From: a virus
Lineage: Duplodnaviria > Caudoviricetes
DNA: 64,000 nt
Virus record (IMG/VR): IMGVR_UViG_3300014039_000028
Span: 1-64,000 of that record
Reading direction: 5' to 3' (one strand)
Within the stretch, counting starts at the first letter, position 1. The number at the start of each line of letters is the position of its first letter. Of the stretch, positions 53,994 to 60,174 are shown one piece after another. The notes below the pieces were generated by a model. The model worked only from the letters and a program-made list of their open reading frames with translations, searched no databases and had not been told where the DNA came from. The position numbers were made by a program, and so were the translations under genes.

Positions 53994-54524
53994 TTACACT
54001 TCATCTCCCCATGCGTCCCAGCCGGGGAATCGTTCTCTCGCAAATATCTCTATGCGCGGCTCATAGCTCACCAGTTCTATCATGCGGCGCATTTCTTCGG
54101 GCTTGCGGCTGTGCACCGTTTTGGGTGCATAGAATCCCGTTTTTCCCTGACAGCGTTTACCTTCGGGAGAAACTTTGTAAGGCAAGCGCTTTTTCGTCGT
54201 GGCAAATATGCAATGTTCAGTCAGTCCTCTGTAATACTGTCCCAAGCCCTGCTGGTTTTTCATCCACGTTATCGTTGTCACATACTCGAATCCCCACGCC
54301 TTCACGCATTCAATGGCGGCGGGTAGATAATTATTGGTAGCCCAGCAGTACAGATGGCACCCGTCAGGGGCTGCAAGTTGCATGACCGGGAGCGCCTTGA
54401 TCTCGGCAACAGACATCAAACTGTAGTGCTTGTCCGCTCCGCGCTTGATTTTGCCGCCTCCCCGCTCTGGCCACGGCGGGTCTATGTAGATTGTGCGGTA
54501 TTTGTCACTTGGAAAGTCGTTCAT
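53994..54524 (-). CDS. MT-A70-like adenine methyltransferase
   Basis: TIYIDPPW, HYSLM, LYCWATN, WGFEY, HSRKP, EIFAR. Confidence 0.9.
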   Translation of the reverse strand: MNDFPSDKYRTIYIDPPWPERGGGKIKRGADKHYSLMSVAEIKALPVMQLAAPDGCHLYCWATNNYLPAAIECVKAWGFEYVTTITWMKNQQGLGQYYRGLTEHCIFATTKKRLPYKVSPEGKRCQGKTGFYAPKTVHSRKPEEMRRMIELVSYEPRIEIFARERFPGWDAWGDEV

Positions 54525-54646
54525 ACGCCCTCCTTGATTTTGAAAAACTGACAGCCGCGGCCTTTATCGCAGTCGTTGGCGCAGAACCGGCATGGATTCG
54601 CATCGAGCACCAACAGTTTGACGATTCGGCACAGCCGTTCTTTCAT
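54521..54646 (-). CDS. small Cys-rich protein, 41 aa
   Basis: read manually; ATGA overlaps at both ends. Confidence 0.45.
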   Translation of the reverse strand: MKERLCRIVKLLVLDANPCRFCANDCDKGRGCQFFKIKEGV

Positions 54647-54933
54647 GTTGAACTGTCCTCCTCAGTTTTAGGGTACAAATCTTCCAAATCCCCCGCGAGA
54701 CGGTGATACTCGCTGTTTTCCTCGATTTCAGCCTTGAGACGGTTCGCCAAATCCTCAATTCGCGTCTGTTGTTTGAGCAGTGTAGTCACGCACTCATCGA
54801 GATATTGCGCAGCGGCAAGATAGCCGCACTTGCCTATCGCTCTTCCATCCTTGCCATCTCTAAGAGCTTCCTCTTTAAGGTCAGCAAGGAACCTCACCAG
54901 AGTTGCCATACGATTTGGTGCATAATTACTCAC
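54643..54933 (-). CDS. hypothetical protein
   Basis: coupled in operon. Confidence 0.55.
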   Translation of the reverse strand: MSNYAPNRMATLVRFLADLKEEALRDGKDGRAIGKCGYLAAAQYLDECVTTLLKQQTRIEDLANRLKAEIEENSEYHRLAGDLEDLYPKTEEDSST

Positions 54934-55247
54934 TTTTCATTTCCCTCCTCATAATTGTCTTTCAAGTATCTGTTTCGTCTGCAACAGGAGCATTTCTGGT
55001 GCTTTTGCTTATTCTTGCAAGTACCGCAACCGCCGATAGTAATACTGTCTGCGAGAAGCGGATTGTTCGCTATGAAATTCGCTTCCAGTAGCTGGATTGT
55101 GTTCAGAAGAGCGCTGTCCATATACGGACTGTCATTCGTCATTCGGTTAAGGCGGCACTTACCTAAAAAATCCAGCAAGTGGTCAAAATTGATATACCTG
55201 ACTGCGTTGCCGTATAACTTCACGCGCTCCTTCTCTTTCCTTGTCAT
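54930..55247 (-). CDS. hypothetical protein with C-terminal Cys cluster
   Basis: coupled in operon. Confidence 0.55.
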   Translation of the reverse strand: MTRKEKERVKLYGNAVRYINFDHLLDFLGKCRLNRMTNDSPYMDSALLNTIQLLEANFIANNPLLADSITIGGCGTCKNKQKHQKCSCCRRNRYLKDNYEEGNEK

Positions 55248-57511
55248 TAGCGCACCACGGCTCCTCTCAAAAATTCATCTAAGTCACCGGATATACCGGC
55301 ATCCTCGTCTCCGAAATGTCTCTTTACGACAGCAATCGGGAACTGCTCAATTTCGCTTGCCCAACGGCAGTTTTCCGCGCCGTGGATTTCAGCCCAGCAC
55401 AGCGGAAACCCGCCTATACCGTCGAACAGTGAACCAAGCGTCGCGTCCGCCGGTAGATACTCGCTTATGCGGCGCAGCAGCCATTTCCAGAACGGGAGAG
55501 CGATGCTGTTGCCAAGGGCTTTATATTTAGGCGCATCAGATTCTTTATGTACGCGTCCTTTCTCATCTGTCCACTCACCTATGTCAACCCATCCGTCCGG
55601 GAATCCCTGAAGTCTGGTACATTCCAGCGGGGTCAGTCTACGCACTGCGCCTGACTGTCGGCATATATTGTTGAGATTGAGACTTGAGCCACCAGATTCT
55701 TTAGCTTGAAGCGTACCGTTCACATCGCCGTTCTCCGTAAAATTTCTGCAATCTACAGCAGCTGAAAGAACATAAGTTGTTGAATCCTCGCGAAACGAGT
55801 CCTTTCCTGAGGCGCGTAAGGTGTGTGCTACGAGCATATCGTTATAAGCGTCCTGCCCGTTGTAGCTTCCAGCGTGTGCTCCCGGTGAGAGTGTTCCGGT
55901 TACCTGTTGATATGTAAGTGGGACTTGATTTCCGCCAGTTCCCATCCTTGCTTGTAGGCTCGGTACAACCTCGCCGCACTCTCTTATGACATCATTCGCA
56001 TGGCTCATATCCAATATTGCAGGAACTTGATTCGTGCCGCTTGAAACCGCTGATAATGTAGGTGAGGTCTCTTCTGCATAACCTATACTGCCCGCTTTCG
56101 CACCTTGTCCAGACTTAAACGCTGCCACTATATGCTTGTCTGCCACGGTGATGGTCGGCGCAGGATCACCATCCTTGCCGATTCCAAGACCGTTCCCGCT
56201 ACCGTCGTTCTTGCGGGTATCTCCTCCGCCCTTGAATCGCGTCGCTTTGTCGTTTATTGGGATGACTACCGATTCCGCGCCGTGCTGTTGGGTGCTTGCG
56301 ACTGCTGGATAAGTGCCTGCTTCAACTGTTCCGGCAGGTCTTTCCCTCTGCTTTCCGCTCTCCGGAGTATCCCCTGACAGGCTGCACGGCTCAAATAATA
56401 TTTCGTGGGCGGTGCTTCCTCCAAAATCTGCGACAACCGAGATTCTACTGTTGGATAGTTGAACGTTCCAAGTCCGTAGAATGTCATGCCCGACCAGTTG
56501 AGCAAGGCTCTTTCCATTTGCGGATTCCTCATTCATATACCCCCTTATCACGGTTAAAACAGATTTTGCCCAGCCGAAGAAGTTCGGCGCATCGGGATTC
56601 GTCTCCATCGCACAGTTTAGATAAGCTCCAGTGACATTTAGCGTGCGCAGCAGGGTTTGGAAACAAGTGCAGATTCGACGGATCGTTATTTCGCTTGTTG
56701 CAGTCGATGTGATGAACTCGTTCTGAAGAAGTGAGTGCGCGTCCAAGGTGTTTCTCAACCACGCTCCTATGGATATATTTTCTTCTGCAATTTTCGATGA
56801 CGTACTCGTACCCTCTGTCATCTGCGCGAACAAGTCCATCTGGATTTCGCCAACTCTTGAACCCAAGTTTTCTTGCTCTTTTGGATAATTCGCTTCCATC
56901 TCGTCCAAGAAGCGTTGCCACCTCTTTATGGTCTCTTCCTTTTGAAGCGAGAATAATTTTATCCTCTTCTGGAGTCCATCTTCGGATAGCCACTTTGCGC
57001 GGCACTCCGATTTTTTCGGCGCGATGCCTAATCGCGCACACGCTTCGACCCAGTCTATCAGCAATATCTCTGTGAGGCATTGAAGCATAATGCTGTCTGA
57101 TATAATTGTCCTCTTGCTGAGTAAATAGTGGATGTTTGCCCATACTATCCCAATTCTCCTTCTTCTTTGCGGAACGCCGCAATACTGCGCATCGTGAATC
57201 TGCGGGTCTGGAATAAAGCCAATCTCAGTCATCATATCCAAGGCAGCTACAAAATCCTCTCCATTATTGCTACTCAACATTCCGGGCACATTCTCAAACA
57301 CCACAAATTTAGGGTACTTTCCTCTGGTCGATGAATACATCTCGCTGATTACCCTAACAGCTTCAATGTATAGACCAGAACGATTCCCTGCTAGTCCCAT
57401 ACGCCTCCCAGCGATACTCAAATCCTGACAAGGCGAACCAAAGGTGATGACATCTACCGGCTCTATTTCAGCGCCGTTTATCTTCGTTATATCTCCTAAA
57501 TGTCTCACCAA
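55247..57511 (-). CDS. C5-cytosine DNA methyltransferase, circularly permuted, with a long insertion
   Basis: GDIT(III), GSPCQDLS(IV), ENVPG(VI), PQRRRR(VIII), RRLTPLEC.RLQGFP(IX), LGNS(X), then SLFDGIGGF(I) and WASEI(II) at the C-terminus. Confidence 0.9.
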   Translation of the reverse strand: MVRHLGDITKINGAEIEPVDVITFGSPCQDLSIAGRRMGLAGNRSGLYIEAVRVISEMYSSTRGKYPKFVVFENVPGMLSSNNGEDFVAALDMMTEIGFIPDPQIHDAQYCGVPQRRRRIGIVWANIHYLLSKRTIISDSIMLQCLTEILLIDWVEACARLGIAPKKSECRAKWLSEDGLQKRIKLFSLQKEETIKRWQRFLDEMEANYPKEQENLGSRVGEIQMDLFAQMTEGTSTSSKIAEENISIGAWLRNTLDAHSLLQNEFITSTATSEITIRRICTCFQTLLRTLNVTGAYLNCAMETNPDAPNFFGWAKSVLTVIRGYMNEESANGKSLAQLVGHDILRTWNVQLSNSRISVVADFGGSTAHEILFEPCSLSGDTPESGKQRERPAGTVEAGTYPAVASTQQHGAESVVIPINDKATRFKGGGDTRKNDGSGNGLGIGKDGDPAPTITVADKHIVAAFKSGQGAKAGSIGYAEETSPTLSAVSSGTNQVPAILDMSHANDVIRECGEVVPSLQARMGTGGNQVPLTYQQVTGTLSPGAHAGSYNGQDAYNDMLVAHTLRASGKDSFREDSTTYVLSAAVDCRNFTENGDVNGTLQAKESGGSSLNLNNICRQSGAVRRLTPLECTRLQGFPDGWVDIGEWTDEKGRVHKESDAPKYKALGNSIALPFWKWLLRRISEYLPADATLGSLFDGIGGFPLCWAEIHGAENCRWASEIEQFPIAVVKRHFGDEDAGISGDLDEFLRGAVVR
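56266..56532 (-). CDS. nested M.EcoHK31I-beta-like peptide (alternate frame of the MTase)
   Basis: WSGMTFYG...ESRLSQILEE.PPTKYYLSRAACQGILRRAESRGKDLPEQLKQAL; ATGA-coupled to the HNH stop. Confidence 0.7.
   Translation of the reverse strand: MRNPQMERALLNWSGMTFYGLGTFNYPTVESRLSQILEEAPPTKYYLSRAACQGILRRAESRGKDLPEQLKQALIQQSQAPNSTARNR
56529..57143 (-). CDS. nested HNH endonuclease with Myb/SANT-like repeats (third frame of the MTase)
   Basis: FTQQED..I / WTPEED..I repeats; YIHRSVVEKHLGR.L...ERVHHIDCNKRNNDPSNL; RBS AAGGAG. Confidence 0.85.
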   Translation of the reverse strand: MGKHPLFTQQEDNYIRQHYASMPHRDIADRLGRSVCAIRHRAEKIGVPRKVAIRRWTPEEDKIILASKGRDHKEVATLLGRDGSELSKRARKLGFKSWRNPDGLVRADDRGYEYVIENCRRKYIHRSVVEKHLGRALTSSERVHHIDCNKRNNDPSNLHLFPNPAAHAKCHWSLSKLCDGDESRCAELLRLGKICFNRDKGVYE

Positions 57512-57659
57512 AAACCACCTCCTTCATGCCAGCGCGAGTGCGTCTGGCTCTTTGGTGCTGGGATGGTAGCACCCGTGTCAAGCGCAAACGAACCAGATGG
57601 CGCAGAACTGCGACGTTGTTTTGTGCAAGTATCACAAAATTTCAAGCTTAATGAACGTA

Positions 57660-57698
57660 GAAAAGCAGCCCTTTCAATTTGAAAAGGCTGTTTTTTTC
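57660..57698. terminator. hairpin with T-tracts on both strands at the strand switch
   Basis: AAAAGCAGCCCTTTCAA-T-TTGAAAAGGCTGTTTTTTT. Confidence 0.5.
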
Positions 57699-57796
57699 GT
57701 ATACCTATACAAATTTTGATGTTTTGGCGATTCCCAAGCGCAAAAATGCGCTTGACACGCCGTGTATCATCCTTGCACCGAAAAAGAAAGAAGCGG

Positions 57797-58009
57797 ATGC
57801 CTATGCAGGAGGCCGAGCTTAAAGCCGCGGCAGTCGGCATACTCACATATCTGGCGATTGCAAATGAGGAGACCACGCGGCACAGCGGAGAGGCGGCGGA
57901 AATTATGGAGTTTGACGCGCCATACAATCCATCCGCGTTCAAACTGGCGATGCAGTATCTCGCGCGGATGGACATGGAAGAAACGGAGGTGGAGTTATGG
58001 AAGCGGTAA
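57797..58009 (+). CDS. hypothetical protein
   Basis: 3' part of ORF 57716..58009; start uncertain. Confidence 0.4.
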   Translation: MPMQEAELKAAAVGILTYLAIANEETTRHSGEAAEIMEFDAPYNPSAFKLAMQYLARMDMEETEVELWKR

Positions 58010-58506
58010 TAATACTGCTTATCTGTACGGTTATCCCTGTAACAGTTGGTTGCGCGATGCACATCAAATTTGCGCACGAACGGTGGGTTTCTTATTTAGA
58101 GCAGAAATCAAGTTACAAACATATAACGGTCTCTCCTGAAATTTTCAAAACAATGCTTTACACCCTCTCCTATGAAATGAGCGCTTTGCCTTACGGCATA
58201 ATGTGGCATAGACCTACATCACGACGCCATGGGAGCGAGCCTATCTTGGTGTACGGTAGAAATCGGCTCGAACAAGAGCAGATGAACCTTGCTCTGACTG
58301 TATACCTCGATAAGCAAGCAAAAGCGCGGGAGAGACGCAAAGAACTCGCCAACGATGCAACTACTGATTCGTTAAAGCAAGTCCAAGACGACCTCCAACG
58401 TATCATCGACGGCAATCTCCGCGCCGCGCAGGAGGCCGCGCGGAAAAATCAAGAGATTATGGAGCGTCTATCAGTAACAACCGCTACACACGGAGGCGCA
58501 CCATGA
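57997..58506 (+). CDS. membrane-anchored coiled-coil protein
   Basis: GGAGG RBS; N-terminal TM. Confidence 0.55.
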   Translation: MEAVIILLICTVIPVTVGCAMHIKFAHERWVSYLEQKSSYKHITVSPEIFKTMLYTLSYEMSALPYGIMWHRPTSRRHGSEPILVYGRNRLEQEQMNLALTVYLDKQAKARERRKELANDATTDSLKQVQDDLQRIIDGNLRAAQEAARKNQEIMERLSVTTATHGGAP

Positions 58507-59021
58507 ACAGCCGTGAAGAGGCCGAGTGGCTTTACCTTGAGAATGAAAAACTCATTTATGGCGCTTTGTATCAATATTTCCCGGCGCTCGCGTCTGATGA
58601 GGACATTCAGCAGATCGCGGGGATCGGTCTCTGGAAAGCCTGTTTGAACTACGATGAGGATAAGTCGTGCTTCTCAACTGCCGCATACAAATTCATCAAG
58701 ACCGAAGTGCTGCAGGAACTACGAAAAAGGCGACGCCGAGGCAAAATCACAGCAATACCTTTCACTGCATTGGTGTGCGATTCGACCACCGAGGGCAGAG
58801 AAGAGCTGGATATCCTTACCATTAGTCCGAGTCTTGATGACATTGACTGGTGTGACATGGAAACGTTTTGGGCATCATTGACCGAACGCCAGCAGTTCAT
58901 CGTCAAGGCGCGTATATCTGGGCTGACTGATGAGGAAATCGCCGCCGCACTGGGTTTGTCTCGCACATTGATTATCCATGAAAAGAAAAACATTCGGCGA
59001 AAAGCCGAGGAAACATTATGA
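58503..59021 (+). CDS. sigma-70-family RNA polymerase sigma factor
   Basis: EDIQQIAGIGLWKACLNYD...FSTAAYKFIK; C-terminal LTERQQFIV...TDEEIAAALGLS. Confidence 0.8.
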   Translation: MNSREEAEWLYLENEKLIYGALYQYFPALASDEDIQQIAGIGLWKACLNYDEDKSCFSTAAYKFIKTEVLQELRKRRRRGKITAIPFTALVCDSTTEGREELDILTISPSLDDIDWCDMETFWASLTERQQFIVKARISGLTDEEIAAALGLSRTLIIHEKKNIRRKAEETL

Positions 59022-59038
59022 ATGGAGGAGGGCTAAAG

Positions 59039-59464
59039 ATGCCACTACTTAACTACACCACGAAAGTGGATGTCTATACCACGATAGGTGCTATACAGGG
59101 GCAGCTTGTAAAGCACGGAGCAAAGAAGATCATGCAGGAATATGACGATGCCGGTCGCATAACGGCTCTATCTTTCCAGATAGACACGCCCAACGGGATA
59201 CGGGGCATAAAGCTTCCGTCTAATGCAGAGGCGGTTAGGCACGTGCTCGCACGACAGAAAGTCAAATGTGATGTTGAGCAGTCTGAACGAGTTGCGTGGC
59301 GTATCATCAAAGACTGGGTAGAAGCTCAAATGGCAATTCTTGAAAGTGAGATGGTGCAGATGGATGAAATCTTTTTGCCATATATGCTCAACAGTAAAGG
59401 TCAGACAGTTTTTGAAGCATATCAGAGCCAGCAGTTATGGCTTGGAGATGGAGGAGAAAAATGA
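59039..59464 (+). CDS. hypothetical phage protein
   Basis: MPLLNYTT...RVAWRIIKDWVEAQMA. Confidence 0.65.
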   Translation: MPLLNYTTKVDVYTTIGAIQGQLVKHGAKKIMQEYDDAGRITALSFQIDTPNGIRGIKLPSNAEAVRHVLARQKVKCDVEQSERVAWRIIKDWVEAQMAILESEMVQMDEIFLPYMLNSKGQTVFEAYQSQQLWLGDGGEK

Positions 59465-60174
59465 GCAAACCAATTTATGTTCCAAAAGGAAAAGCCAAAG
59501 AATATGGCGACTATGCGATCAATATTTACACAGGATGTCCACACCGTTGCTTTTACTGCTTCGCCCCGAATGTGCTCCACCGCGACAGAGAGACTTTTCA
59601 CACAAATGTCAAGCCGAGAGAGAACATAGTCGAGGAAGTCCGAAAGCAGATCGAACGTGAACACATCACCGGACGGCTCATTCATCTATGGGTGCTTTCT
59701 CACATTAACTCCTTTATGGTGGTTATGACCCGTGATGGTTTTACCCTGCTCGTTATGGGCTACAACGGCAAACTCGCCATGAAGTTCAAGGAAGCCTATA
59801 TCAAGCAGTTCAATGCAATGGAAAGTGTTCTTCGCAAGAAAATGATAGCGCGTGAAAGAGGTCGAGCTTCCAGAGAATTTTTAACGGATTCCATACAGCA
59901 GTCCGATGAGGATGCGCGTATGCACGGGCACGCCTACTCAACCTATACCAACTGCATCTACAAGGTGCTTTTCGGGAAATCCGCGGCTCAGTTGCGGATG
60001 GACTACGGCATAGGCAGGACAGACAATCTCCGAGATTGCTTCTCGCCCGAGGATTTAGCGGCAGTGGACTCTATGGAGCATTTAGTAAGTGGTTTGGTCG
60101 CCTGTGGCTGGGAGTATGGGCGGATAAAAGACTTCATCGAGCAGACAAACACACAAAAGGCTTTAATGGCGTGA
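59461..60174 (+). pseudogene. in-frame chimera: truncated radical SAM N-terminus fused to Rha-family C-terminus
   Basis: GCPHRCFYC in the first 76 aa, then MTRDGFTLLVMGYNG..AMKFKEAYIKQFNAME. Confidence 0.7.

Follow-up and report, generated by a model that had tools for sequence, protein, structure and literature searches.

A methylase gene enclosing two further reading frames

The complete 78,386-nt virus record IMGVR_UViG_3300014039_000028 (Caudoviricetes), of which positions 1 to 64,000 were analysed (hereafter, the window), carries on its minus strand a C5 DNA methyltransferase gene with two other reading frames inside it. Phages are thought to shield their own DNA from host restriction with C5 methylases. 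The methylase frame (A) encloses an HNH homing-endonuclease gene in the A+2 frame and, behind it, an open reading frame (ORF) of 88 amino acids (aa) in the A+1 frame (B), and it runs without a stop through both (Table 1). The 88-aa ORF, the origin of its peptide and its probable role as a displaced part of the methylase are described here; related loci and proteins are cited by L and P numbers.

The host gene is a C5 DNA methyltransferase in which motifs I, IV (PCQ), VI (ENV), VIII (QRRRR), IX and X were all located, in circularly permuted order: motifs IV-VIII are N-terminal and are followed by the insert, the variable region and motifs IX, X, I and II. The chain starts at HLGDIT and SPCQDLS (IV), continues through ENV to QRRRR (residues 115-119), reaches motif IX at residues 624-640 (RRLTPLECTRLQGFPD, also read as VRRLTPLECTRLQGFPDGW) and ends with GNSIALP (X) and LFDGIGGF (I). 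The permuted order, with motif I and WASEIE after motif X and a start at HLGDIT and motif IV, also occurs in L001-L004, L023, P0152, P0154 and P0166 and is common to many gut-phage relatives with and without the HNH insert; the HNH-bearing relatives L007, L020 and L024-L026 keep the ordinary motif order. Two further relatives have unusual arrangements. P0177 (1012 aa) has, besides the out-of-frame HNH, a second HNH_3 domain in frame between 'RLQGFP' (motif IX) and 'GWTDIG'. P0027 (412 aa) runs from the variable region through IX, X, I, IV and VI into the peptide frame without motif VIII, an order that may reflect tandem methylase copies, a permutation intermediate or a frame error in the source contig.

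The HNH gene lies directly after motif VIII (open frame 56529..57182, likely start ATG at 57143), and its product has a helix-turn-helix or Myb-like N-terminal region. Homologues with 39-65% identity occupy the identical site in other methylase genes. The arginine codons of motif VIII (AGAAGAAGGAGA) double as a putative ribosome site of the HNH gene, and L020 has an equivalent arrangement with GGAGGAGGG ahead of the HNH ATG. At the distal end, the B start codon overlaps the HNH stop by 4 nt (ATGA), just as had been described in the original prediction, a reading of the window from its letters alone. The shared bases then read VVADFGGSTAHEILFEP... in A and ESRLSQILEEAPPTKYYLS... in B and, further on, '...SRISVVADFGGSTAHEILFEPCSLSG...' in A and '...ESRLSQILEEAPPTKYYLSRAACQGILRRAESRGKDLPEQLKQAL...' in B. 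The same prediction held that all three frames are in use; each frame does carry a gene, but the bases read in all three amount to only 4 nt in the window, compared with 31-37 nt in L007, L020 and L021.

Table 1 Features of the methylase locus in the window
Feature	Coordinates	Strand	Evidence or basis
C5 DNA methyltransferase, 754 codons (frame A)	55247..57511	minus	PF00145 (8.8e-42), TIGR00675, motif positions
Variable (target-recognition) modules and motifs IX, X and I in frame A	55250..56263	minus	near-invariant columns
Frame A reading of the peptide bases: linker, residues 327-416 of 754	56264..56533	minus	residues not conserved
88-aa ORF (frame B = A+1)	56266..56532	minus	ORF listing, homology, pN/pS, AlphaFold2
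Shine-Dalgarno-like AAGGGGG, 7 nt before the B ATG	56540..56546	minus	formed by codons of the conserved HNH C-terminal 'KGVY'
HNH homing-endonuclease gene, 204 aa (frame A+2)	56529..57143	minus	PF13392 HNH_3 (2.2e-10); PHROG HNH families
Shine-Dalgarno-like site, ~12 nt before the HNH ATG	57155..57166	minus	motif VIII Arg codons AGA AGA AGG AGA
Insert of 711 nt (237 codons) relative to HNH-less relatives	56447..57157	minus	blastn against L001-L004, junction sequences

The 88-aa ORF is conserved and recurs with the same layout

The triple layout, with the same frame relations (A one frame and B two frames on from the HNH frame), was found in eight further metagenomic loci (L006, L007, L020, L021/L022 and L023-L026) whose carriers span gut phages to a virus contig of 62% GC with ordinary motif order (L007). 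Across these loci the B ORF is 80-93 aa long, its start lies 4-37 nt ahead of the HNH stop and it terminates 5-19 codons past 'LP..L..AL'; purine-rich sites stand 7-12 nt upstream of its start in L006, L007, L020 and L021. Its start and stop are conserved although the HNH proteins of the loci share only 39-46% identity. A search of IMG/VR with the HNH protein alone returned one full-length relative, L007; the other matches lay in unrelated HNH contexts and were set aside. An exhaustive phmmer search with the peptide retrieved 2692 cluster representatives (E<=1e-3), and the peptide matched no family in Pfam, PHROGs or NCBIfam.

Substitutions are concentrated where frame B tolerates them. Over a 132-nt core compared among nine loci, the ratio of nonsynonymous to synonymous differences (pN/pS) was 0.03-0.69 for B in 36/36 pairs and mostly >1 for A, with silent divergence (pS) up to 0.96; for the N-terminal 25 codons it was 0.17-0.62 for B and 1.1-1.5 for A, all of these being simple counts on short, partly saturated alignments. 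The contig of the closest relative, P0001 (L005), is a rearranged remnant without the methylase N-terminus and most of the HNH gene, which was set aside as a layout locus and is useful only for its substitution pattern. Before the two sequences diverge, it differs from the window at 13 positions in the ORF, 11 of them silent in B (nine third positions and two first positions of leucine codons) and two replacing, and frame A residues are changed at at least eight positions. Over the peptide stretch, the A text of the window is unrelated to that of L006 or L024, so frame A is kept open here but not conserved. This substitution pattern indicates that the peptide frame is under purifying, coding selection and, with the recurring layout, shows that the 88-aa ORF is a real, conserved gene that lies within the methylase gene but is read in a different frame.

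The peptide alone was modelled by AlphaFold2 with a mean predicted local distance difference test score (pLDDT) of 80, with residues 40-80 at 88-94 and helices at 4-12, 33-36, 49-62 and 68-79; a Foldseek comparison of the model with the PDB returned nothing at E<=0.001. A peptide-like N-terminus also occurs in P0023 (236 aa), where 'MRQKNIREALRKWDGMTLYG...RGKELPEI' is joined to a domain with a HEIAH metallopeptidase-like motif, so the peptide module occurs outside methylases too.

The layout is also present in cultured viruses: cluster J mycobacteriophages carry an HNH gene and an 81-aa ORF inside a C5 methylase in the same arrangement. Thibault (L028, NC_023738 60129-65353) is annotated there with gp102 (methyltransferase), gp103 (HNH), gp104 (hypothetical) and gp105 (methyltransferase), of which gp104 is the B ORF. 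The same locus is a misc_feature in Schatzie (L029; 'unable to determine intron boundaries') and one long CDS in Hannaconda (L030).

Stop avoidance in the methylase frame over the HNH gene

Frame A is read straight through the HNH insert in >30 protein clusters (566-1012 aa). When the codons of the HNH gene in the window were shuffled synonymously, keeping the HNH protein, the probability of no stop in frame A was 0.007, and it was 0.0055-0.027 per locus for the five loci in which A is stop-free across HNH (frame B there contains 9-15 stops); these loci share kinship, so the stop probabilities are not independent and cannot simply be multiplied. Because the loci differ at most silent sites, there has been ample time for stops to arise. 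Within the HNH region the HNH frame is the more constrained (pN/pS 0.41-0.61, versus 0.58-1.0 for A). The methylase frame is thus kept open across the HNH gene by stop avoidance.

The peptide corresponds to the methylase segment after motif VIII

Uninterrupted C5 methylases hold the whole peptide sequence in frame, ~20 residues past motif VIII. The clearest case is P0044, in which residues 182-257 align with peptide residues 2-77 (E 2.1e-12; 55% identity) and the in-frame text reads '...QRRKRVFVVGVNRKYF...RDKRMQRALDAWQGETFHG...QKLSDILE...KYTLSRKACLGILRRAESRGKVLP..L..AL'; the segment also follows motif VIII in frame in P0090, P0059 and 25 further relatives (P0271-P0295; Oscillospiraceae, Clostridia). 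This in-frame homology assigns the peptide to the stretch that separates motifs VIII and IX, as the proximal portion of the variable region. In the AlphaFold2 model of P0044 (Z 26 against M.HhaI), the stretch 182-258 lies beside the catalytic domain at pLDDT 81-96 and the remaining variable region is unmodelled. A PDB sequence search with P0044 aligned only up to motif VIII and then again at motif IX, so by sequence the peptide is not represented in any solved structure. In the window, the long chain contains no in-frame copy of the segment. By homology, then, the peptide is the methylase's own post-motif-VIII segment, situated at the hinge and where the variable or small domain begins, and here it has moved to the third frame.

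The origin first suggested, homology to the beta polypeptide of M.EcoHK31I, was not supported. That polypeptide is encoded in another frame within the alpha gene, and motif IX is its defining element (PMC2836561, PMC3404938). In the window motif IX lies in the main frame; the peptide lacks it (no R.LT..E...LQ.FP) and aligns instead with the post-motif-VIII segment of ordinary methylases such as P0044. On this comparison, the likeness to M.EcoHK31I appears to lie in gene layout and not in homology.

A 711-nt insert and the HNH-less relatives

Similarity between the window and the HNH-less gut-phage relatives L001-L004 ends near 57350 and returns at 56446 (blastn). The insert is bounded by a direct repeat, AGAAT (57157-57153 and 56446-56442), and its removal in silico places PQRRRR directly before ISVVADFGG, the exact junction of L001-L004. 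Its content is the HNH gene together with codons 1-29 of the 88-aa ORF; the C-terminal two thirds of the peptide lie outside it. An insert with the HNH gene and the peptide start accords, for this lineage, with the earlier proposal that an HNH insertion split an ancestral alpha/beta overlap and that beta is now translated by way of the HNH gene; the deeper ancestry, by contrast, is an in-frame segment and not an overlap. Less was left of a companion proposal, that the region of motifs VII-VIII had been duplicated and that the downstream copy had decayed in frame A. Identity between the copies is 42% over 69 nt, where shuffles give 25% (P ~0.001), but the downstream copy shares a non-significant 26-32% with the motif VIII DNA of L001, L002 and L004, the resemblance is absent from other HNH-bearing loci, and the 'HD' of the supposed duplicate is a by-product of the conserved peptide-frame 'GMT'.

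L001-L004 retain, in the +1 frame within the methylase frame, codons for the 55 C-terminal residues of the peptide, and the B pN/pS of 0.24-0.69 indicates that purifying selection has been kept; upstream of 'SRLSQILE' the frame is merely the +1 reading of motif VII-VIII DNA. The pattern extends to 80 IMG/VR loci (L031-L110) taken by peptide alignment from a collection with at least 590 matches. A nested +1 ORF of ~135-155 codons lies inside a methylase frame running from motif VIII to IX in 57/80 of these loci; in 6/80 the +1 frame itself runs on to motif IX, and 14/80 are unclear at the 3' end. The upstream part of the nested ORF is stop-free in 72/73 loci, an openness that is only suggestive, as no more than 1.4 stops per 100 codons are expected from synonymous shuffling. 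In the HNH-less genes the nested +1 ORF, which ends in the peptide core, looks like an unannotated overlapping gene.

Many of the HNH-less genes with 'QRRRRI..VADFGG' (L001-L004 and L031-L110) have either a conserved methionine ~101-113 codons upstream of 'AC.GILRRA' ('G..QM..IQD..SGKT') or 'M[KR]WEDDGAW' after GGAGG. Near 'AVRIRGGCDGGGKG', L004 and L003 differ from L002 in the frame that continues into the variable region, which switches at G-rich runs after the peptide core, and in L004 all three frames are used; these switches could be assembly errors or homopolymer frame switching.

The HNH-less 'VADFGG' genes may be ancestors or scars of invaded genes. Only the invaded form keeps the peptide N-terminus of ordinary genes, which favours the order ordinary, invaded, scar. 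The motif V-VIII region of the window groups with ordinary and HNH-bearing genes and not with L001, which fits acquisition of the HNH cassette along with flanking sequence.

A displaced segment as a probable small subunit

Since the peptide is derived from the methylase itself, its best reading is that of a small subunit acting in trans. The HNH gene follows motif VIII directly, and the methylase frame would read the HNH and peptide bases as a spacer of ~290 residues, beyond which the long chain would continue into its recognition modules and then motifs IX, X and I. Because frame A reads the peptide bases as spacer, the displaced segment would be missing from the long chain. The peptide would be translated from the third frame by ribosomes finishing the HNH gene (through ATGA) or by initiation at the Shine-Dalgarno-like site that the final HNH codons contain, and would dock non-covalently on the long chain, completing the enzyme as split C5 methylase fragments do. 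C5 methylases work as separate polypeptides in M.AquI and M.EcoHK31I, and bisection is tolerated best in the proximal variable region (PMC3404938), the part to which the peptide belongs; M.AquI and the fragment-complementation work make a trans-acting peptide plausible. We consider it fairly probable that the peptide is translated, binds the long chain and completes the methylase as a separate small subunit.

Several points weigh against this reading. In the cluster J phages, motifs IX-X are in another frame with an overlap of ~90 nt with the end of the main frame, and Thibault carries an extra shift near motif I, so that the methylase looks further broken; such frame breaks mean that the peptide ORF can persist in possibly inactive genes. 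The N-terminal third of the peptide was modelled at pLDDT of only 66-77. The kinship of the shuffled loci and the shortness of the alignments behind pN/pS, given above, count on the same side, as does the fact that translation, binding and the need of the peptide for methylation are steps that we infer from sequence and from analogy with split methylases.

Four other explanations were weighed. The peptide might serve the homing endonuclease, as a DNA-binding helper, regulator or immunity factor carried with it in one mobile cassette: it is always coupled directly to the HNH stop, its start and first 29 codons lie within the insert, and its fusion to an unrelated HExxH domain in P0023 suggests that it can act as an independent module. 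We regard this as unlikely, because the sequence stands in frame in methylases without an HNH gene (P0044 and >25 relatives), because the selection on it is also seen in the HNH-less L001-L004, and because most of the peptide (its C-terminal two thirds) is outside the insert. If instead the HNH gene lay within a self-splicing intron, splicing would join motif VIII to the peptide and the 88-aa ORF would be exon 2. An ordinary gene interrupted by an intron would show the order motif VIII, HNH, peptide, phage group I introns commonly contain HNH genes, and the annotators of Schatzie assumed an intron. An Rfam scan of 54000-59500 (E<=1), which a divergent intron could escape, returned one chance lncRNA match and no intron, and no intein blocks were seen by eye in the frame A text. 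The spliced chain would also end at the peptide stop, which is conserved in all loci, without the variable region and motifs IX-X; the next in-frame ATG in the window lies ~80 codons past that stop; an intron would not explain why the methylase frame is open over HNH in every locus; and in the published ShiLan case no intron was found either (PMC11855218). An intron is thus improbable, rather more so than a helper of the endonuclease.

Decay of the locus, with the methylase dead after invasion and the 88-aa ORF a frame-shifted relic open by luck, would account for the extra frame breaks in the cluster J genes and for the ORF retained in the deleted remnant L005. It is hard to reconcile with purifying selection on the peptide among loci diverged at the majority of their silent sites (pS up to 0.96), with a B start and stop that outlast HNH divergence to 39-46% identity, with a methylase frame that avoids stops and with the intact catalytic motifs of the long chain in the window, and we give it scarcely more weight than the least probable alternative. 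That is -1 recoding near the end of the 88-aa ORF into frame A. The resulting subunit would comprise the peptide, the variable region and motifs IX, X and I and would resemble the beta chains found in 'form 1' relatives that lack an HNH. The peptide frame runs into the variable region and motif IX in L002, P0002, P0021 and 6/80 IMG/VR loci, and this natural run-on implies that such a fusion is viable. A search of the peptide frame in nine loci for -1 heptamers, however, detected no slippery site of the form X_XXY_YYZ in seven of them, the window included, and only G runs in L020 and L026, and the position of the B stop and the sequence around it vary; recoding is accordingly very improbable.

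Going beyond a small subunit, the HNH gene could be holding a piece of the host enzyme hostage, having pushed the post-motif-VIII segment into the third frame and tied its translation to the HNH stop codon, with the HNH-less 'QRRRRI..VADFGG' methylases as scars of invasion. We put this forward tentatively, as a possibility that is more doubtful than the subunit itself. If it is true, methylase activity would depend on continued translation of HNH, which would slow the decay of the HNH gene, and the scars, having lost 711 nt between the AGAAT repeats, would keep a nested, selected +1 gene (77/80 IMG/VR loci).

Relation to known systems

The arrangement has partial counterparts. As in M.EcoHK31I, a small polypeptide is encoded in an alternate frame (here +1) wholly inside a large methylase gene and is presumed to be needed jointly with the large chain; in that system the small chain carries motif IX and there is no homing endonuclease, whereas the peptide here is the post-motif-VIII segment. 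M.AquI and split M.SssI and M.HhaI likewise obtain activity from separate polypeptides cut between motifs VIII and IX (PMC3404938). They differ in that the large chain here holds both flanks (IV-VIII on one side; variable region, IX, X and I on the other) and only a short middle piece is separate. The window has no small subunit of the M.AquI type, with the distal variable region and motifs IX-X, as B stops after 88 codons and those parts are in the main frame; the relatives L002 and P0002, whose peptide frame continues as far as motif IX, are closer to M.AquI.

A phage methylase whose open frame conceals an out-of-frame HNH gene has been described, the ShiLan case (Arsenault, Gosselin and Gogarten 2025, PMC11855218). 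The two cases share a same-strand, out-of-frame HNH, a stop-free host frame, an insert that is a multiple of three (711 nt here) and a short resemblance of the insert start to the sequence after the insert. In neither was an intron or intein signature found, here on an Rfam scan at E<=1 and an inspection by eye for intein blocks. The HNH here is a different one, without zinc fingers and with a helix-turn-helix or Myb-like N-terminus, and the methylase is different as well; a Shine-Dalgarno-like site is present, whereas no ribosome-binding site is reported for ShiLan. What mainly sets the window apart is its third gene, which follows the HNH in the frame left over and encodes part of the host enzyme: PMC11855218 mentions neither a third ORF nor a displaced host segment, and nor does a related preprint on actinophage inteins. 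Fractured genes (Dassa et al. 2009, PMC2677866) resemble the locus in having a free-standing homing endonuclease in a host gene expressed in reassembling pieces. There, split inteins rejoin the pieces covalently; here no intein was seen, the host frame is uninterrupted and reassembly would be non-covalent. No paper describing the displaced third gene was found in the literature searched, the coverage of which is incomplete. An out-of-frame HNH in an open phage methylase was thus known already, and the displaced third gene is apparently new.

Implications

The locus is a natural case of three frames of one strand in use, each with a testable product, and its layout explains puzzling mycobacteriophage annotations such as Thibault gp102-gp105 and the remark on intron boundaries in Schatzie. 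The locus suggests, too, that a large family of phage C5 methylases has a nested gene that annotation has missed, and the peptide is contained in ~2,700 cluster representatives. If the proposed mechanism is true, homing endonucleases would have a third mode of living in a coding gene, one that uses neither intron nor intein: translation of the host frame continues across the invading gene, and the one frame still free supplies the part of the host enzyme that was displaced.

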